Assembly: GCF_003334315.1 (NCBI RefSeq)
Contig: NZ_QOWR01000025.1
Direction: 5' to 3' (one strand)
Length of the DNA stretch: 64,000 nucleotides
DNA from: Escherichia coli
Lineage (GTDB): Bacteria; Pseudomonadota; Gammaproteobacteria; Enterobacterales; Enterobacteriaceae
Positions within the stretch are counted from its first letter, which is position 1, and every line of letters starts with the position of its first letter. The notes under the pieces are model-generated. The model was not told the origin of the DNA. It made no database searches and worked only from the letters and a program-made list of their open reading frames with translations. The translations under genes were made by a program, and so were the position numbers. Shown piece after piece: positions 7,528 through 62,910 of the stretch.

Positions 7528-7650
<123 letters not shown>

Positions 7651-9410: not shown

Positions 9411-9575
9411 AAGAAAACTCCTTTCGAATCAGGAGGCCATTGTAACGGAATACGTGCAGTTGCGGCGCTGATATTGCAGAAATGAGTGTGGTATAGTCAC
9501 CTTGCGAAACAGAGTTTATCTTCGTAGGCTTAGACTTGCATCCACGGTTAAGTCAGAGTGCTGACAGGAGGGCAT

Positions 9576-9776
9576 GTGGAAAAATATTGTGAGTTAATAC
9601 GCAAGCGGTACGCGGAAATCGCCAGCGGAGACTTAGGATACGTTCCGGACGCGCTGGGCTGCGTTTTGAAAGTGCTGAATGAAATGGCTGCCGACGACGC
9701 CCTTTCTGAGGCTGTCAGGGAAAAAGCAGCATACGCTGCGGCAAACTTACTGGTGAGCGATTATGTCAATGAATGA
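9576..9776 (+). CDS. yaeP: UPF0253 small protein YaeP
   Basis: 66 codons from GTG at 9576, preceded by a strong RBS aggaggg (9565-9571); the ORF track begins at an upstream GTG (9558) without a comparable RBS. Overlaps rof by 14 bp. Confidence 0.7.
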
Positions 9777-11880: not shown

Positions 11881-14022
11881 TTATCCCGCCATTTTTAGGA
11901 CTCGTACGCGGTAAACGCCGTCTTCGTCCTGTTTCGCGCCGTGAATATCCGTTTCAAAACCGGGGTAATGTTGCCCGACGGAACAAAGCATCAGTAGAAA
12001 ATCGAGTACTGTGCGGCTCTCTTTGGTCAGCATTTCTCCAGGCATCAACAGCGGTACGCCCGGTGGATAAGGCAGGATCATATTTGCCGATACTCTACCG
12101 ACCAGTTGTTCCAGCGCAATGGTTTCTACTTCGCCTTTAATTTGTCGTTGCCATGCCTGATGTGGCGTCATGATCATCTCCGGCAAAGTATCGAATGCCC
12201 GCAACATCAAACCGGGAAGATCGTGTTTACGAATCAGCTTATGGATCCCTTGTGCCAGATCCTGAATACGCATATTGCGGTAGAAATCGGGATCTTCTGC
12301 ATAGAGATCGGGTAGCATATTTTTGATCCGCAGGTTGAGATCGTAAGAGCGTTTGAATTCCGTCAACCCACGCAATAATCCCATTGCTTTGGTTTTATCG
12401 ATGCCAATACTAAAGAGAAACAGCAGGTTATAAGGGCCGGTTTTCTCTACTACGATCCCACGTTCGTCGAGGAATTTTGCTACCAGCGCCGCCGGGATCC
12501 CCTCCTCGCTCATATTGCCCTGCTCGTCCATCCCCGGTGTCAAAATAGTGACTTTAACCGGATCGAGAAACATATGATCGGCATCCGCATCGTTAAAGCC
12601 GTGCCACTGTTCGCCAGGCGCAACGGGCCAGCATTCGGCTTCATCCACCTGCGGCGGTTGCCAGATATCGAAAAACCAACCGTCAGACTCTTCCCGCAGC
12701 CGCTGGACCTCTTTGCGAAAATGCAGAGCTCGTTCTACTGAACGGTTAATCAGCCGTTTGCCCGGATTACCACGCAGCATCGCCGCCGCCGTCTCAACCG
12801 AAGCAACAATGGGATAACTGGGCGAGGTGGTGGTATGCATCATAAAGGCTTCGTTAAAGGCCTCTTCGTCATACTCGCCTTTAATGTGGATCAGCGAAGC
12901 CTGCGATAACGCCGCCAGCATTTTGTGGGTCGATTGCGTTTCGAAGATCACTTTTCCCGCAACACGCTCGCCGCTCATACCACTTTTACCCTGGTAGATC
13001 GGATGAAAATGGGTGTACGGCACCCAGGCAGAATCGAAGTGAATCGACGGGACATCCAGCGTCTGTTTGATCCAGTCGGTGTTGTAGAGCAAGCCATCAT
13101 AGGTGGAGTTGGTGATCACCGCATGAACCGGCCATTGTGCTTGCGTGGTAGCAGCGACTTTCTCTTCGATGCTGTCGCGAGTAAATTCACGGCGCGGGAT
13201 CCCACCAAGAATCCCCAACGCATTACGCGTCGGTTTCAGCCAGACTGGCACTACATCGTTCATCATCAACAGATGCGCCAGCGATTTATGACAATTGCGG
13301 TCGATCAACAGCGTACTGCCGGATGGCGCGGCGTACATACCCACAATTTTGTTCGACGTCGATGTTCCGTTGGTAACGATATAACTCTGTTCCGCGCCAA
13401 AAGTCCGCGCGATGTACTCTTCCGCTTCCAGGTGTGGCCCGGTGTGGTCGAGCAACGAACCAAGCTCGGTGACCGAAATAGAGACATCAGCCTTAAGAGT
13501 ATTCCCGCCGAAAAAATCATAAAACAGACAGCCAACCGGGCTTTTTTGATATGCGGTACCGCCCATATGCCCCGGCGTACAAAAGGTGTACTTCCGCTCT
13601 TTGACGTAGGTAAACAAGGCTTTCGTGAACGGCGGTGTAATGTTATCAAGATATTCGTCGGTGTACTGACGCATACGAATGGCGATATCTTCCGCCTGCC
13701 CCAGCGCATATTCAAAAAACCAGAGCGCCATCCGCATATCCTGCACGCTGACATCCATCGTCGAGTGGGTGTTGATGAAGGCATAAAGCGGGAGATATTC
13801 ATTAAGCTGATTGATATCGCTACATAAATCGAGACTGTACTCATCCCAGTCAAAAATCACGCCGCAAATTCGAGGGTTATGTTCGATAAATTTCAGCAAA
13901 TCAACGCTGTTTTGTGGCCAGATAATCTGAAAGCCTTGCGCCACCAGCGCCGACTCCAGTTCTTTGATGGGCTCATCTTTATAAAAGACGCCATGCGGTC
14001 CCATAATGGCAATGATGTTCAT
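11881..14022 (-). CDS. ldcC: lysine decarboxylase, constitutive (PLP-dependent, Orn/Lys/Arg decarboxylase family)
   Basis: 713-aa ORF with the wing, PLP and C-terminal domains of this decarboxylase family; its position between yaeR and accA matches ldcC rather than cadA. Confidence 0.93.
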   Translation of the reverse strand: MNIIAIMGPHGVFYKDEPIKELESALVAQGFQIIWPQNSVDLLKFIEHNPRICGVIFDWDEYSLDLCSDINQLNEYLPLYAFINTHSTMDVSVQDMRMALWFFEYALGQAEDIAIRMRQYTDEYLDNITPPFTKALFTYVKERKYTFCTPGHMGGTAYQKSPVGCLFYDFFGGNTLKADVSISVTELGSLLDHTGPHLEAEEYIARTFGAEQSYIVTNGTSTSNKIVGMYAAPSGSTLLIDRNCHKSLAHLLMMNDVVPVWLKPTRNALGILGGIPRREFTRDSIEEKVAATTQAQWPVHAVITNSTYDGLLYNTDWIKQTLDVPSIHFDSAWVPYTHFHPIYQGKSGMSGERVAGKVIFETQSTHKMLAALSQASLIHIKGEYDEEAFNEAFMMHTTTSPSYPIVASVETAAAMLRGNPGKRLINRSVERALHFRKEVQRLREESDGWFFDIWQPPQVDEAECWPVAPGEQWHGFNDADADHMFLDPVKVTILTPGMDEQGNMSEEGIPAALVAKFLDERGIVVEKTGPYNLLFLFSIGIDKTKAMGLLRGLTEFKRSYDLNLRIKNMLPDLYAEDPDFYRNMRIQDLAQGIHKLIRKHDLPGLMLRAFDTLPEMIMTPHQAWQRQIKGEVETIALEQLVGRVSANMILPYPPGVPLLMPGEMLTKESRTVLDFLLMLCSVGQHYPGFETDIHGAKQDEDGVYRVRVLKMAG

Positions 14023-20353: not shown

Positions 20354-21141
20354 TAACGAATCAGACCGCGCGTTGAGCGTGCAAAGAAATCGGTAAAGGC
20401 TTTCACTTCCGGATATGTTTCCGCCAGTTCAGCAATTTCCGGTTTCACTTCATCGAGCGTTTTACCGCTACGATAAATCAGCTTATACGCATTGCGGATA
20501 GCGGTAATCGCCTCACGGCTGAATCCGCGGCGCTTCAGCCCTTCGATATTGACACCGAACGGCGTTGCGTGGTTACCCTGCGCAATGACATAAGGAGGGA
20601 CGTCCTGCGCCACACCGGAGCAGCCGCCAACCATCACGTGCGCACCAATGATGCAGAACTGATGGACTGCGGTCATGCCGCCGATGATCGCGAAGTCGTC
20701 AACCGATACGTGACCCGCCAGCGTTGCGTTGTTGGCGAGAATACAGCGGTTACCTACCGTACAATCGTGCGCAATGTGCGCGTTGATCATCAGTAAGTTG
20801 TCGCTGCCCACCTTCGTCAATCCACCGCCCTGGACTGTGCCACGATGAATGGTGACGCTTTCGCGAATGCGGTTACGATCGCCGATTTCCACACGGGTCG
20901 GTTCGCCAGCATATTTCAGATCCTGGTTAACTTCGCCGATGGAGGCGAACTGATAAATCTCATTATCGCGGCCAATTTTAGTATGACCATTCACGACAAC
21001 GTGAGATTTCAGTACGGTACCCTCACCAATTTCGACATGGGGTCCAACGATACAAAAAGGACCAATGTGTGCGTTCGCGCCAATTGACGCGCCCTCTTCC
21101 ACAATGGCGGTTGGATGCACAAAGGCGGATTTATCAATCAC
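20353..21141 (-). CDS. lpxA: UDP-N-acetylglucosamine acyltransferase
   Basis: 262-aa ORF with left-handed beta-helix hexapeptide repeats; 1-bp overlap with lpxB. Confidence 0.95.
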
Positions 21142-21144
21142 GTA

Positions 21145-21600
21145 TCAGGCCTCCCGGCTACGAGCACACATCATCGTTGCTTCGCAAACTACTTTACCAT
21201 CGACCAGAGCAACCCCTTTAAAACGGGTCAGGCCGCGGCGCGTTTTTTCGAAAGTGACTTCCATGATCATTTGATCGCCAGGCACGACCGGGCGCTTGAA
21301 GCGCGCTTCGTCAATACCAGCGAAGTAGTACAGCTCACCCGGTTCCAGTTTTCCTACGCTTTTAAACGCCAGAATACCTGTTGCCTGTGCCATTGCTTCC
21401 AGAATCAGCACACCCGGGAAAATCGGTTTTCCAGGGAAATGGCCCTGGAAGAATGGCTCATTGACAGAGACATTTTTTACTGCGCGCAGAAAACGACCTT
21501 CTTCAAAATCCAGCACGCGATCCACCAGTAAGAACGGGAAACGGTGCGGCAGAAGTTCTAAAATCTCTTCAATCTGCAGAGTATGAGTGTTAGTAGTCAA
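21145..21600 (-). CDS. fabZ: 3-hydroxyacyl-ACP dehydratase FabZ
   Basis: 151 aa starting at TTG (complement of 21598-21600), preceded by RBS aggaag; the ORF track's ATG-initiated extension adds 31 non-conserved residues. Confidence 0.9.
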
Positions 21601-21704
21601 GATACTCTTCCTGTCAAAATATAAGAAACGACAATAATAACACGGCCTGCCGCAATCGTAAGAATGAGACAGGCCGTAAAGTTTGGCGAACAAAAGATGG
21701 AACG

Positions 21705-22733: not shown

Positions 22734-23219
22734 TTATTTAACCTGTTTCAGTACGTCGGCAGTGATGTCTTTTACATCGCTGCTGTTGTAAGCAACGGCG
22801 TTTGCATCAACAACCAGATCGATATCCTGGCTGTTGGCAACGGATTTCACAGCAGTCTGGATACGAGTAACCAGTTTGCCGCGTTCTTCGTTGGAACGAC
22901 GTGCGCGATCCTGCTCAAAAGCCTGCGCTTTCTGAGCAAAAGTCTGGCGCTGAGCCATCACGTCTTTTTCCAGCTTAGTGCGATCGCTGCCCGCTTTCAT
23001 GGACTGCAGCTTTTTCATTTTAGCCTGCAGATCGGTTTCCATACGCTGCAGTTCGCTGGCACGGCCTTTGAACTCATTTTCCAGCGTGTTAGAAACACCG
23101 GTTTTCTGCGCTACCTGCTGGAACAGGCTGCCCATGTTGACGATTGCAATTTTGTCAGCCGCCTGAGCAGAAGTTGCCAGTGCTAAACCGAGACCTGCAG
23201 CTAATAACCACTTTTTCAC
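22734..23219 (-). CDS. skp: periplasmic chaperone Skp (OmpH)
   Basis: 161-aa ORF with signal peptide and coiled-coil-rich sequence. Confidence 0.95.
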
Positions 23220-41392: not shown

Positions 41393-42817
41393 TTACTGCA
41401 TTAACAGGTAGATGGTGCTGTCGCCGCGCTGAATGTTGAGTGCCAGCACAGACGGTTTGCTGTCGAGAACTTTACGCAGTTCAGCGATGTTTTTCACTGC
41501 CTGCTGGTTCGCGCCAATAATCACATCACCTTTCTTCAGGCCGATCTGCGCAGCCGGAGTGCCCGTTTTCACGTTGTTCACTACCACGCCCTGATCTTTG
41601 CCTTTGTTGCTCATCTCAGCGCCTTCAATGCCGTTGAAGATGGAGCTGGAATCAACCTGATTCTGGCTGCTCTGCTGCAGTTCCAGGTTCACGTTAACCT
41701 GCTTACCGTCGCGCAGTAAGCCCAGGGTCAGTTTGCTGCCTACCGGCATAGTACCCACCTGAGCACGCAGTGCGGCAAAGCTGCTGATCGGCTTACCGTT
41801 CAGTGAGGTGATCACATCACCCGCTTTAATGCCCGCTTTTGCAGCGGAGGAATTAGGCAGAACCTGGCTTACGAAAGCACCGCGCTGGGCGTCAACTTTC
41901 ATCGCTTTCGCCAGTTCGGAGTTCAGCTCAGTCCCCATAATACCCAGCTCACCGCGTTTCACCTGGCCGTATTCCACCATCTGCGAGGTCAGGTTTTTCA
42001 CCATGTTACTCGGGATAGCAAAACCGATACCGATGTTGCCGCCGTCCGGTGCGAGGATCGCGGTGTTGATACCGATCAGTTCGCCGTTCAGGTTAACCAG
42101 CGCACCACCGGAGTTACCACGGTTGATCGCTGCATCGGTCTGGATGAAGTTTTCGTAGTTTTCGGCATTCAGGCCGCTACGCCCCAGCGCAGAGACAATC
42201 CCGGAAGTTACCGTCTCGCCCAGACCAAACGGGTTACCAATCGCTACGGTGTAATCACCCACGCGCAGTGCATCAGAATCCGCCATCTTAATTGCGGTCA
42301 GGTTTTTCGGGTTCTGGATTTGGATCAGCGCGATATCAGAGCGCGGATCTTTGCCAACCATCTTCGCGTCGAACTTACGGCCATCGCTCAGTTGAACTTT
42401 AATGACCGTCGCGTTATCAACAACGTGGTTGTTGGTGACGACATAGCCTTTATCGGCATCAATGATGACGCCGGAACCCAGCGCCATGAATTTCTGTTGC
42501 TGGCCGCCACCATTACCGCCCTGGCCACCCTGGCAGAACGGAGAGCTCTGGAACGGAGAACCTTCCTGGCAGAACGGAGAATCATCACCGAAGAACTGCT
42601 GGAAATTACGCGGCATACGCGGCGTATTAACGGTTGTGCTACCTTCTACGTTAATGCTGACCACTGAAGGCATCACCTTTTCGAGCATCGGTGCAAGGCT
42701 TGGCATCTGCTGGGCTGTCGTTGCTGAAGAAGTCTCAGCCGCCGTTGCAGAGAGCGGAGATAACGCCAAACCTAAACTCAGAGCCAGTGCACTCAGTGCT
42801 AATGTGGTTTTTTTCAT
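41393..42817 (-). CDS. degP: periplasmic serine endoprotease/chaperone DegP (HtrA)
   Basis: 474-aa ORF with signal peptide, trypsin-like catalytic domain (GNSGG) and two PDZ domains. Confidence 0.97.
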   Translation of the reverse strand: MKKTTLALSALALSLGLALSPLSATAAETSSATTAQQMPSLAPMLEKVMPSVVSINVEGSTTVNTPRMPRNFQQFFGDDSPFCQEGSPFQSSPFCQGGQGGNGGGQQQKFMALGSGVIIDADKGYVVTNNHVVDNATVIKVQLSDGRKFDAKMVGKDPRSDIALIQIQNPKNLTAIKMADSDALRVGDYTVAIGNPFGLGETVTSGIVSALGRSGLNAENYENFIQTDAAINRGNSGGALVNLNGELIGINTAILAPDGGNIGIGFAIPSNMVKNLTSQMVEYGQVKRGELGIMGTELNSELAKAMKVDAQRGAFVSQVLPNSSAAKAGIKAGDVITSLNGKPISSFAALRAQVGTMPVGSKLTLGLLRDGKQVNVNLELQQSSQNQVDSSSIFNGIEGAEMSNKGKDQGVVVNNVKTGTPAAQIGLKKGDVIIGANQQAVKNIAELRKVLDSKPSVLALNIQRGDSTIYLLMQ

Positions 42818-42859
42818 GTATTTCAGTCTCGATTAACAGATAACGCAAAATTGCTGTGT

Positions 42860-59157: not shown

Positions 59158-61587
59158 TTACGAATACTTTTTCGTCCGTCGCGTCGGTGCAGTATTTGCC
59201 GGGTCGTCCGGCCAGACATGTTTGGGATAACGCCCTTTCATCTCTTTTTGCACCTCACGGTACGCTCCTTTCCAGAAGGCGCTCAAATCTCGTGTGATTT
59301 GTAATGGCCTTTGGGCAGGTGAAAGCAACTCCAGCACCAGCGGCACGCGCCCCTGGGCGATCGTCGGATTGGTGGCCTCGCCAAACATCTCTTGCATTCT
59401 CACCGCCAGCGCGGGCGGGTTATCTTCATGATAACGAATGGCGATCCGGCTTCCCGTCGGCACAGTGTAATGCGCAGGCAATTCACTATCCAGACGTTGC
59501 TGCATTCCCCAATCAAGTAATCCGCGTAGTGCCTGATAAATGTCGAGTGATTTCAGGCCGCGTAGTGAATGTACGCCAGTCATATGTGGCAGCAGCCACG
59601 TTTCCAGCGCTGCCAATAAACTTTCATCATCAACCGCTGGCCAGTCATATTCCGGCAACCACTTTGCGGCGCATAACAAACGCAAGCGTAGCTGTTCCGC
59701 TTCCGCCGTCCAGTTGAGCACGCTTAAACCTTTATCACGGATGCCATTAAGCATCGCCTGATGCAACTCGTCTTCTGACGGTTTCGCCAGCGGCTGCACT
59801 TTCACCGTCAACTGACCGATTTGTAGCCGACGCCAGGCTTTCAGCGTACCTTGCGCGTCATCCCACTCCACAGTGTCAGACTGCTGTACCAGCTGCGGGC
59901 AGCGTTGTACTAACTCATCAATATCGACCAGCAGCGCCAGTAAAATCCGCGCATCCGGCGAGGCGCTGCCCTGCAATAATAACGGTGCGATCAACCATTC
60001 GTGGCGGCTTAGCGCGTCGTTGGCATCGAGCATCGCTCCCATGCCGTTTGCCAGTTGATAGCGTCCATCTTGCCCACGGCGACGAGCAATGCGATCGGCA
60101 AACGCCCCGGCAAGTAGCGGCGCGATAAGCGAACTGTCTGCCTCACCGCCACGTACGTTTAAGCGTTTTAACAGTTGCTGACTACGTTGCTGCCAGGCTG
60201 GTTGATTGCGCGAAAACGCCACGCCCAGGTCACTATTGCCCATCCGTGGCGGCTCTTCGAGAATGGCGGCAATTTTTGCCGCGGTAGCAGCTTCGTCGTC
60301 GTTCTTCGCGCTAACCAGCATTGCCGCTAAACGCGGATCGTTACCCAGCGCTGCCATTTTTTGCCCTTGCGCACTAAGCCGTTCACCCTCCAGTGCCCCC
60401 AGCATTTGTAACAGACGTTTCGCGGCCAGTAGATTCACTACTGGCGGTTGATCCAGCCAGCTCATCTGCGCCGGATCGCTGCATCCCCATTGCAGTAATT
60501 CCATCAGCAAACCGGAAAGATCGCTTTGTAAGATCTCCGGTTCACTTTGCGCCGCGGCGCGTTCTGCTTGTTCTTTGGCGATTAAATGCAGGCTGATACC
60601 CGGCTCCAGACGCCCGGCGCGCCCGGCACGCTGCGTCATGGATGCCTGGCTAACGCGTTGAGTAATCAGTCGCGTAAGCCCCGTGCGCGGATCAAAACGC
60701 GCCACACGCTCCTGGGCACAATCCACCACCAGACGAATACCTTCAATGGTTAAACTGGTTTCAGCAATATTGGTCGCCAGCACCACTTTGCGCATCCCTT
60801 GCGGTGCCGGGAGGATCGCTTTTCGCTGATCGTTCAGCGACAACGCGCCATACAGCGGGCAGAGCAATACATCACTGCCGATGCGCGAAGCCAGTTGTTC
60901 CTGCACACGCTGAATTTCTCCGACGCCAGGTAAAAATAACAGTAATGATCCGCTTTCCTGACGCAGCATTTCAGCGGTGGCTACCGCAACGGCATCGTCA
61001 AAACGCTGATGCGCGGGCAGCGGTAAATAACGGCGTTCAACCGGAAACGAGCGCCCTTCTGAGATGACGACAGGCGCTTCTGGCAGCATTTGCTGCAAGC
61101 GGTCGTTGTCCAGGGTAGCCGACATAATCAGCAGTTTAAGGTCATCACGCAGACCTTGTTGCACATCGAGTAACAGCGCCAACGCCAAATCCGCCTGCAA
61201 GCTGCGCTCATGAAATTCATCAAGGATCACCAGTCCAACACCGCTCAGTTCCGGGTCACGCTGGATCATGCGCGTCAGCACGCCTTCGGTAACCACTTCC
61301 AGGCGGGTATTCGGCCCGACGCAGTTTTGCGCACGCATCCGGTAGCCAACGGTATCGCCTGGCTTTTCGTTAAGCAGCTCCGCCAGCCGTTGCGCGACGT
61401 TACGCGCCGCCAGACGACGCGGCTCCAGCAGGATAATTTTCCCGTTAATGCCGGGATGCGCCAGCAGTTGCAGCGGCAGCCAGGTTGATTTCCCGGCCCC
61501 GGTCGGCGCACTTAATAATACCTGCGGCGCACAATCGAGAGCGGTAAGTAATTCAGGTAAGACGGCAGCAACGGGCAACGACGACAC
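59158..61587 (-). CDS. hrpB: ATP-dependent RNA helicase HrpB (DEAH-box)
   Basis: 809 aa from GTG (complement of 61585-61587) with RBS ggag upstream; Walker A TGAGKST and DEFH motif; the ORF track's ATG start adds 15 codons. Confidence 0.9.
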   Translation of the reverse strand: MSSLPVAAVLPELLTALDCAPQVLLSAPTGAGKSTWLPLQLLAHPGINGKIILLEPRRLAARNVAQRLAELLNEKPGDTVGYRMRAQNCVGPNTRLEVVTEGVLTRMIQRDPELSGVGLVILDEFHERSLQADLALALLLDVQQGLRDDLKLLIMSATLDNDRLQQMLPEAPVVISEGRSFPVERRYLPLPAHQRFDDAVAVATAEMLRQESGSLLLFLPGVGEIQRVQEQLASRIGSDVLLCPLYGALSLNDQRKAILPAPQGMRKVVLATNIAETSLTIEGIRLVVDCAQERVARFDPRTGLTRLITQRVSQASMTQRAGRAGRLEPGISLHLIAKEQAERAAAQSEPEILQSDLSGLLMELLQWGCSDPAQMSWLDQPPVVNLLAAKRLLQMLGALEGERLSAQGQKMAALGNDPRLAAMLVSAKNDDEAATAAKIAAILEEPPRMGNSDLGVAFSRNQPAWQQRSQQLLKRLNVRGGEADSSLIAPLLAGAFADRIARRRGQDGRYQLANGMGAMLDANDALSRHEWLIAPLLLQGSASPDARILLALLVDIDELVQRCPQLVQQSDTVEWDDAQGTLKAWRRLQIGQLTVKVQPLAKPSEDELHQAMLNGIRDKGLSVLNWTAEAEQLRLRLLCAAKWLPEYDWPAVDDESLLAALETWLLPHMTGVHSLRGLKSLDIYQALRGLLDWGMQQRLDSELPAHYTVPTGSRIAIRYHEDNPPALAVRMQEMFGEATNPTIAQGRVPLVLELLSPAQRPLQITRDLSAFWKGAYREVQKEMKGRYPKHVWPDDPANTAPTRRTKKYS

Positions 61588-61660
61588 AAAACGCTCCAGA
61601 GGGTTAACATTCTTCGCGCCACATTGTAGCATCGCGGTAATTCATAACCGAGTGCCTCAC

Positions 61661-62910
<1,250 letters not shown>

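Follow-up and report, generated by a model that had tools for sequence, protein, structure and literature searches.

The window analysed here, the whole 64,000-nucleotide stretch of an Escherichia coli contig (NZ_QOWR01000025.1, assembly GCF_003334315.1), is the reverse complement of approximately 159,701-223,700 of the E. coli K-12 MG1655 chromosome (NC_000913.3) with gmhB at one end and dksA at the other. Its identity to K-12 is 99.73% (164 mismatches, two indels); strain 13C1065T is nearer still, separated from it by about 22 SNPs and an indel near one end. The curated K-12 annotation was transferred onto the window base by base and then compared with a mechanically produced list of open reading frames (ORFs), and the NCBI PGAP calls of the near-identical strain 13C1065T were used as a second annotation source. 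Three genes of the window, fabZ (b0180, TTG), hrpB (b0148, GTG) and yaeP (b4406, GTG), carry non-ATG starts whose coordinates are identical in the curated K-12 and PGAP records, and for each of them the mechanical list holds a longer frame. Upstream of fabZ, the spacer that separates it from lpxD contains a conserved RNA hairpin (Table 1).

Table 1. Coordinates of the genes, longer frames and control features considered in this study, in window numbering.
Feature	Coordinates	Strand	Remarks
yaeP 6-codon 'extension' (GTG CTG ACA GGA GGG CAT)	9558..9575	+	GTG at 9558-9560; contains the Shine-Dalgarno sequence of the annotated start
yaeP CDS, 66 aa	9576..9776	+	GTG at 9576-9578 within an ATGTG motif; Shine-Dalgarno AGGAGG at 9566-9571
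lpxA GTG start	21139..21141	-	GTG in 80/80 species; Ribo-RET 120.9 CPM in the accessible part of the published table
fabZ CDS, 151 aa	21145..21600	-	TTG start at 21598-21600; K-12 curated and PGAP
fabZ mechanical ORF	21145..21693	-	31 codons longer; upstream TTG at 21691-21693
fabZ ribosome-binding region GACAGGAAGAGTATC	21601..21615	-	Shine-Dalgarno core AGGA at 21609-21612, 8 nt before the TTG
fabZ 31-codon 'extension'	21601..21693	-	non-coding lpxD-fabZ spacer
Conserved hairpin CGGCCUG...CAGGCCG in the lpxD-fabZ spacer	21643..21676	-	covariation; tail UGUUAUUAUUG at 21632-21642
cdsA TTG start	28022..28024	-	TTG in 68/68 species
hrpB CDS, 809 aa	59158..61587	-	GTG at 61585-61587; Shine-Dalgarno GGAG at 61594-61597, 6-nt spacer
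hrpB 15-codon 'extension'	61588..61632	-	ATG at 61630-61632 inside the invariant ATGCTACAATG (61622-61632)

Longer reading frames and the longest-ORF rule

The longer frames would follow from the way in which they were called. A mechanical finder that extends each frame back to the first ATG, GTG or TTG after the preceding in-frame stop would return ORFs longer than the genes themselves, and the codons added here would be non-coding control DNA, namely the lpxD-fabZ spacer for fabZ, a divergent promoter region for hrpB and the 5' UTR for yaeP. The annotated starts, UUG in fabZ and GUG in hrpB and yaeP, are near-cognate codons, each with a Shine-Dalgarno sequence lying 4-8 nt upstream to position it for reading by the initiator fMet-tRNA. 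We regard it as highly probable that fabZ, hrpB and yaeP are ordinary genes with near-cognate starts and that their longer ORFs are artefacts of the longest-ORF rule. An earlier note on this DNA, made from the sequence, had called these starts a matter of annotation and not new biology; indeed, the three non-ATG starts are already known, being identical to those in the existing curated K-12 and NCBI PGAP records.

The same note gave the sizes of the extensions correctly, at 31 codons for fabZ, 15 for hrpB and 6 for yaeP, but its description of the longer calls as ATG-based fits only hrpB, since the fabZ extension begins at a TTG and that of yaeP at a GTG. It further spoke of ATG-to-ATG over-extension in eight other genes. 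The list actually holds eleven, for all of which the curated and PGAP starts agree, and among these an ATG-to-ATG extension is found only in thpR (+71) and yaeF (+18); the longer frame begins at a TTG in proS, rseP, rpsB, btuF, erpA and fhuC, and at a GTG in yaeR, cdaR and dksA. Across the window the two annotation sources disagree only at rof (86 aa in PGAP vs 84 aa in K-12) and at ispU, where PGAP has an ATG and K-12 a GTG one codon upstream. Seven further non-ATG starts had gone unnamed, a TTG in cdsA and a GTG in each of skp, lpxA, frr, ispU, fhuB and gmhB.

Nor did the over-extension prove to be systematic. In 18 of the 58 genes an in-frame ATG, GTG or TTG occurs upstream of the annotated start before a stop closes the frame, against 23.3 expected when the triplet frequencies of the window are applied to the open upstream length of each gene; the 'systematic' extension is therefore the chance outcome of a longest-ORF rule. 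The number of non-ATG annotated starts (10/58) compares with a rate of about 12% genome-wide (P = 0.15), the latter taken from the roughly 88% of starts that are ATG across the genome (PMC9825163).

Initiation at fabZ, hrpB and yaeP

For fabZ, the locus with 10-kb flanks was compared among 80 Enterobacterales species, with members of Citrobacter, Enterobacter, Klebsiella, Kosakonia, Pantoea, Erwinia, Serratia and Yersinia in the set. All 80 begin fabZ with TTG, and the sequence GACAGGAAGAGTAT(T/C) ahead of it is invariant or nearly so across the loci; among 79 distinct orthologous sequences, this degree of conservation extends over the 15 bases before the TTG. The duplex predicted between the anti-Shine-Dalgarno sequence and the mRNA has an energy of -4.3 kcal/mol at the annotated TTG vs -0.7 kcal/mol at the upstream TTG. 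Published initiation-site profiling points to the same codon: in the accessible part of INRI-seq Table S2 a peak at K-12 position 202101, the fabZ TTG, occurs in 5/5 in-vitro replicates, and the re-analysed in-vivo Ribo-RET data of these tables assign it 239.6 CPM, more than any other gene of the bamA-lpxB stretch receives. PDB entry 6n3p, a structure of E. coli FabZ, is likewise the 151-aa form.

Could the longer frames of fabZ and hrpB nevertheless be the real genes, encoding proteins of 182 and 824 aa, respectively? Both extended frames are open in this strain, yet we consider this extremely improbable. In 56 of the 80 species no in-frame start precedes the fabZ TTG before a stop is reached, and many species, among them Pantoea, Erwinia and their relatives, have an in-frame stop at codon -5 relative to the TTG; the published initiation peaks, as far as the tables were accessible, map to the internal TTG. 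The FabZ-182 reading is, on these comparative sequence data, already refuted.

Two further ideas about the fabZ start were considered and rejected. One was that the TTG is unusually conserved; the non-ATG starts of frr, cdsA, skp and lpxA, and all ATG starts, in the 80 loci vary as little. The other was that a stable structure, with pairing of AGAGUAU and AUACUCU, is hidden at the start. Synonymous variation in codons 2-11 is 0.19, compared with typically 0.4-0.77 in later 10-codon blocks, but the region from -40 to +45 folds no better than shuffled sequence (z = +0.42), and we therefore read the low variation in codons 2-11 as ordinary constraint at the 5' end of a gene.

At hrpB, the annotated GTG is conserved in 4/5 loci examined, including those of a Salmonella-like genome, Klebsiella and Pluralibacter, and so is the GGAG ahead of it; Serratia symbiotica has GTA at the start position, in a copy of the gene that appears degraded. 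The anti-Shine-Dalgarno energy again favours the annotated codon, at -6.2 kcal/mol for the GTG vs -2.4 kcal/mol for the upstream ATG, which weighs against an 824-aa HrpB. In protein searches most orthologues are predicted to start with MSSLPV, MSLLPV or MSDLPV, and the N-terminal extensions predicted in other genera are mutually non-homologous. The crystal structures 6eud and 6heg are of the 809-aa protein, starting MSSLPV. Neither INRI-seq nor Ribo-RET has an initiation peak for hrpB in the tables accessible to us; its start is assigned from the sequence comparison and the Shine-Dalgarno pairing.

The longer hrpB frame differs from that of fabZ in that it begins with an ATG. The N-terminus of the mechanical 824-aa form reads MLQCGAKNVNPLERFV..., and an extension of the type MLQC(G/S)AK... 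is common to a clade of E. coli, Salmonella-like and Citrobacter-like sequences, where it is conserved and in frame; this is the exception to the lack of homology among extensions, and a point in favour of HrpB-824. The 11-mer ATGCTACAATG that carries the upstream ATG is identical in five genera (E. coli and four others). In E. coli and the Salmonella-like sequence 45 nt separate this ATG from the GTG, but Klebsiella has 43 nt at this place and Pluralibacter 44 nt; the ATG is therefore out of frame in the latter two, and in Pluralibacter its frame meets a TAA before the GTG. Within the clade of E. coli, Salmonella-like and Citrobacter-like sequences, conservation of the frame cannot separate coding from promoter constraint.

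A promoter would account for these bases in another way. The motif TGCTACAAT at hrpB, invariant in five genera, fits the extended -10 pattern TGnTAnnnT, although a consensus promoter scan passed over it for want of a -35 hexamer with at least 4/6 matches. On the opposite strand, the scan did call a promoter-like TTAACA-17-TAGCAT, which overlaps the same bases and is directed toward thpR. Judged from sequence patterns, ATGCTACAATG is likely to serve the divergent thpR/hrpB control region as an extended -10 element (TGnTACAAT). The upstream ATG of hrpB would then lie at or upstream of the -10 of the promoter, so that it may be untranscribed.

The start of yaeP (GGAGGGCATGTG) combines AGGAGG with a 4-nt spacer and a GTG that overlaps an out-of-frame ATG, the latter encoding only MWKNIVS. 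The Shine-Dalgarno sequence is a strong one, the anti-Shine-Dalgarno energy being -10.8 kcal/mol at the annotated GTG vs -2.4 kcal/mol at the upstream GTG. Overlapping sites of this kind (atGTG/AUGUG) have been described as a group (PMC9841429), and Table 2 of that study includes yaeP, with AGGAGG as its Shine-Dalgarno sequence, a DtoStart of 12 and 'no predicted ambiguity'; the gene is listed there and was not individually assayed. The GTG is invariant in 6/6 genera, including a homologue of 63% identity, and YaeP representatives at 38-63% identity have their initial M aligned with the E. coli GTG. PGAP also calls yaeP as 66 aa in E. coli.

An alternative is that YaeP exists as two proteoforms, the 66-aa protein from the GTG at 9576 together with a minor form of 71 or 72 aa from the CTG at 9561 or the GTG at 9558. 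In the accessible part of INRI-seq Table S3 an in-vitro yaeP peak is assigned to the in-frame CTG at -15, with 71.8 CPM in 5/5 replicates; the -18 GTG is preceded, at 5 nt, by a weak UAAG; the predicted fold of the 5' UTR places the -18 GTG in a hairpin loop and the annotated GUG in a paired region; and 71-aa YaeP forms beginning MTGGHVEKY are found in NCBI nr for Raoultella, Enterobacter, Cronobacter, Cedecea and Kosakonia. The codon at -6, however, is not kept as a start, reading GTG, ATG, GTG, ACG (K. pneumoniae) and TTG in five genera, and the 63%-identical homologue has no start codon at -6 or -5. The residues TGGH coincide with the AGGAGG Shine-Dalgarno sequence, which by itself would explain why they are conserved, and in distant homologues the protein begins at the annotated position. 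Moreover, the yaeP transcript in INRI-seq begins just 30 nt upstream, so that a 5'-proximal start could be an in-vitro artefact. We consider the existence of a second YaeP proteoform quite unlikely.

Overall, the earlier note was right in placing the conserved starts of all three genes at these TTG and GTG codons, with a good Shine-Dalgarno sequence ahead of each: the positions match the curated K-12 and PGAP records and are conserved across genera, each annotated start has a better anti-Shine-Dalgarno energy than its upstream rival, and at fabZ the internal TTG has the additional backing of published initiation-site profiling. Across genera, the extensions are not under coding constraint, with upstream starts that are absent from most species (fabZ), out of frame in two genera (hrpB) or variable (yaeP). 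No N-terminal peptide of FabZ, HrpB or YaeP was found in the accessible TRAINSPOTTER tables, and in the tables examined direct in-vivo support for the start site so far concerns fabZ and not yaeP or hrpB.

Annotated starts elsewhere in the window gain similar support. In the 80-species set the ATG start is kept in 69/69 loci for rseP and in 53/54 for yaeR, and the 71-codon extension of thpR is not conserved, being interrupted in two genera by in-frame stops, which lie 4 and 18 codons upstream. As far as the published tables were accessible, N-terminal proteomics confirms the GTG starts of frr, gmhB and ispU; the starts annotated for rpsB, rseP, yaeR, yaeF and dksA have support from INRI-seq, that of proS more weakly so, whereas INRI-seq is blank for cdaR, btuF, fhuC and thpR; and Ribo-RET adds support for rpsB (1489 CPM), rseP and yaeR. 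The Ribo-RET comparison column of this widely used INRI-seq supplementary table calls for caution. In the part accessible to us it is zero for every minus-strand gene, even for those that are very highly expressed, and it is therefore uninformative for yaeP, thpR, yaeF, proS, dksA and btuF. In practice, a longest-ORF track overcalls the N-termini of about a third of genes, and the reference annotations are already right for fabZ, hrpB and yaeP.

A conserved hairpin in the lpxD-fabZ spacer

The spacer between lpxD and fabZ is 104 nt long in the window and ranges from 99 to 278 nt across species. Its predicted fold is strong (z = -3.26, with 0/200 shuffles folding as well) because of the hairpin listed in Table 1. 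This hairpin was found in the window and in 80/80 loci of the comparison set. It takes the form of 63 distinct sequences, for which stabilities between -17 and -27.5 kcal/mol are predicted. Its base stem has the form CGGCCUG...C(A/G)GGCCG. The apical stem varies yet stays paired, for example as GCUAUC/GAUAGC or GCGAUC/GAUCGC; Serratia and Yersinia have CCCC/GGGG. With two exceptions, the 63 sequences place the hairpin 41-46 nt upstream of the fabZ TTG, most of them at 43 nt. The conserved hairpin and initiation module falls inside the fabZ region to which the earlier note drew attention, though it is not what that note described.

Conservation of the pairing was quantified in two length-matched alignments, in which the partners pair in 87% and 94% of cells; slid controls reach 24-47%. 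Six pairs in one alignment and four in the other have changed on both sides, and the observed covariation score was reached by 0/500 shuffles. The covariation is visible only in length-matched alignments; when the spacer was simply aligned with MAFFT, RNAalifold returned the invariant outer stem only, with no covariation. A search of Rfam at gathering thresholds gave no family at the fabZ, hrpB or yaeP start regions. The region between lpxD and fabZ is regulatory RNA or DNA and not protein-coding, and a covarying hairpin within the 31 added codons, with an RNA 3' end after it, weighs further against a 182-aa FabZ.

This 3' end comes from published Term-seq data, in which two samples have ends at K-12 positions 202063/202064 (Adams et al. 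2021, supplementary file 1). These correspond to 21638/21637 of the window, 5-6 nt past the hairpin stem. Adams et al. 2021 class them as 'orphan' because they lie more than 50 nt past lpxD. Such an end may be produced by termination or by exonuclease trimming. Genomic SELEX papers additionally report binding of the RpoD, RpoE (intensity 30.9), RpoH and RpoF holoenzymes in the spacer. The publications that report the 3' end and the RNA polymerase binding contain no discussion of either.

In its GC-rich base stem, its T-rich tail and the position of the 3' end 5-6 nt after it, the element resembles a Rho-independent terminator or attenuator. It departs from an intrinsic terminator in several respects. 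The tail UGUUAUUAUUG contains 7 U in 11 bases but is interrupted, with a longest U run of 2, and is conserved as a sequence and not just in composition; the hairpin is held almost fixed at 43 nt from the fabZ start; and a simple terminator scan flags only a 5-bp sub-stem of it as terminator-like. Since essential genes lie downstream, any termination would be only partial. Read most economically, the hairpin would end lpxD either as a partial intrinsic terminator or as a 3'-protective structure. It may be overlapped by a promoter, and the tail can also be read as an extended -10 element, TGnTATTAT.

Non-ATG starts and a possible control of FabZ output

A second essential lipid-synthesis gene in the window, cdsA, resembles fabZ in having a conserved TTG start, and mutagenesis of cdsA has demonstrated that its TTG and a backup CTG are both functional (Hikage et al. 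2024, PMC11448367). In the same study fabZ is mentioned as a further essential gene that starts with TTG and ought to be kept at a low level. The two cases differ in their evidence, in that the start of cdsA is backed by mutagenesis and that of fabZ by ribosome profiling and conservation. It is possible that non-ATG starts are selected dosage controls by which the ratios of the essential envelope and lipid enzymes FabZ, CdsA, LpxA and Skp, within a single long operon, are kept fixed and low, although we put this forward tentatively and with somewhat more doubt than belief. Over 61-80 species such starts are invariant or nearly so (fabZ 80/80, cdsA 68/68 and lpxA 80/80, with GTG in frr in 61/61 and in skp in 71/72). 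Furthermore, a multicopy plasmid carrying cdsA with ATG in place of its TTG was lethal upon induction, and the authors extend this logic to fabZ (PMC11448367); the strongly reduced synonymous variation in the first codons of fabZ has the same tendency. Against this, the ATG starts of these loci vary just as little, so that invariance at this depth is no sign of selection for weakness, and ldcC switches freely among ATG, GTG and TTG in the 80-species set. In the accessible Ribo-RET data, moreover, the fabZ TTG is among the strongest peaks of the operon and hence not obviously a weak site. Weak start codons may help to set protein dosage.

A broader and more speculative reading, which we think rather unlikely, is that the fabZ 'extension' is a conserved control module that sets the output of FabZ relative to LpxD and LpxA. 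Its parts would be the covarying hairpin about 43 nt from the start, the conserved tail, the near-invariant ribosome-binding region and an obligatory UUG. Such a module might terminate a part of the transcripts that arrive from upstream and at the same time contain a promoter of its own, the transcripts of which would lack the 5' half of the stem. The balance of FabZ to LpxC and LpxA governs the split between phospholipid and lipid A, and the lpxD-fabZ spacer is a plausible candidate for a point at which this balance is controlled.

Start codons and additional initiation events

Start assignments were compared between the curated K-12 MG1655 annotation and the NCBI PGAP calls on the near-identical strain 13C1065T, and across Enterobacterales species. 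For ispU, K-12 carries a GTG start whereas PGAP places an ATG one codon downstream; because the GTG position reads GTT in 51 of 56 other species, the conserved start is the ATG. In published N-terminomics (TRAINSPOTTER), E. coli IspU N-termini of both forms, MMLSATQPL... and MLSATQPL..., are reported. The two annotations also differ for rof: K-12 uses the ATG at 9769 (84 aa) and PGAP the one at 9763 (86 aa). Published in-vitro initiation profiling (INRI-seq, PMC9825163) has peaks for both. The cdsA start is TTG in all 68 species in which it was compared; by mutagenesis, its codon 2 (CTG) serves as a functional backup start, and a TTG-to-ATG change in multicopy-plasmid cdsA is lethal upon induction (PMC11448367). 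The ldcC start codon, in contrast to those of neighbouring genes in the Enterobacterales, is variable: GTG in 24, TTG in 21 and ATG in 12 of 57 species.

Published data also place extra initiation events or N-termini in three further genes. TRAINSPOTTER gives a skp product N-terminus at internal Met60, in-vivo retapamulin profiling (Ribo-RET) gives an internal out-of-frame start at Leu95 of sfsA, and for frr an in-frame ATT start lies 9 nt 5' of the GTG by INRI-seq and Ribo-RET. In the examined rows of Supplementary Table S2 of PMC9825163, the Ribo-RET comparison column reads 0/FALSE for all minus-strand genes, including the highly expressed metQ and dapD, and is unusable as negative evidence for these genes.

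Strain differences in yadW and mrcB

The small protein YadW is shortened from 21 aa in K-12 to 7 aa in the window strain by a stop at codon 8, which is absent from both K-12 and strain 13C1065T. Relative to K-12, mrcB (PBP1b) has a 9-nt in-frame deletion in its Q/P-rich C-terminal tail, where QPQQQPQQQPAQQ becomes a 10-residue version; a codon 2 SNP in the same gene is found in neither reference strain.

Coordinates of the features discussed (window positions)
Feature	Position	Strand	Basis or change
naRNA4, REP-derived nucleoid-associated RNA	7567-7643	-	Rfam
yaeP 5' UTR	9504-9585	+	conservation, Term-seq, fold prediction
rof start	9763-9771	+	K-12 vs PGAP
ldcC start	14020-14022	-	cross-species comparison
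lpxD-fabZ spacer hairpin and tail	21632-21676	-	conservation, covariation
skp	22734-23219	-	extra N-terminus, published
cdsA start	28022-28024	-	TTG
ispU start	28793-28798	-	K-12 GTG vs PGAP ATG
frr	30272-30829	-	extra initiation, published
CssrA sRNA	32907-33016	-	Rfam
t44 (rpsB leader)	33855-33941	-	Rfam
HtrA/degP 5' UTR thermometer	42812-42857	-	Rfam
yadW codon 8	47128	-	GAA->TAA
mrcB changes	about 56519 and 58959	-	comparison with reference strains
11-mer, thpR/hrpB divergent region	61622-61632	both strands readable	cross-genus identity
sfsA	62206-62910	+	extra initiation, published

Conserved non-coding elements

Rfam matches in the window were taken at the gathering threshold. An Rfam search returned no matching family for the lpxD-fabZ spacer hairpin (CGGCCUG...CAGGCCG), whose conservation across 80 Enterobacterales species is backed by covariation. 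The conserved tail UGUUAUUAUUG follows directly 3', and the hairpin lies 41-46 nt upstream of the fabZ TTG in nearly all of these species. A published Term-seq RNA 3' end falls 5-6 nt past the hairpin, and RNA polymerase binding to this spacer has been published from SELEX.

Between thpR and hrpB, the 11-mer ATGCTACAATG is identical in five loci (E. coli, Salmonella-like, Klebsiella, Pluralibacter and Serratia symbiotica) and, from its sequence, can be read as a putative -10 element on either strand.

The yaeP leader is strongly conserved between genera and is preceded by an extended -10-like motif, TGGTATAGT. Its predicted fold (z = -1.74) has the annotated GUG base-paired. Of two RNA 3' ends reported by Term-seq, one with a very high score falls 10 nt inside yaeP (K-12 214116, window 9585) and the other lies at K-12 214055. 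The leader could be a source of abundant leader-derived RNA.
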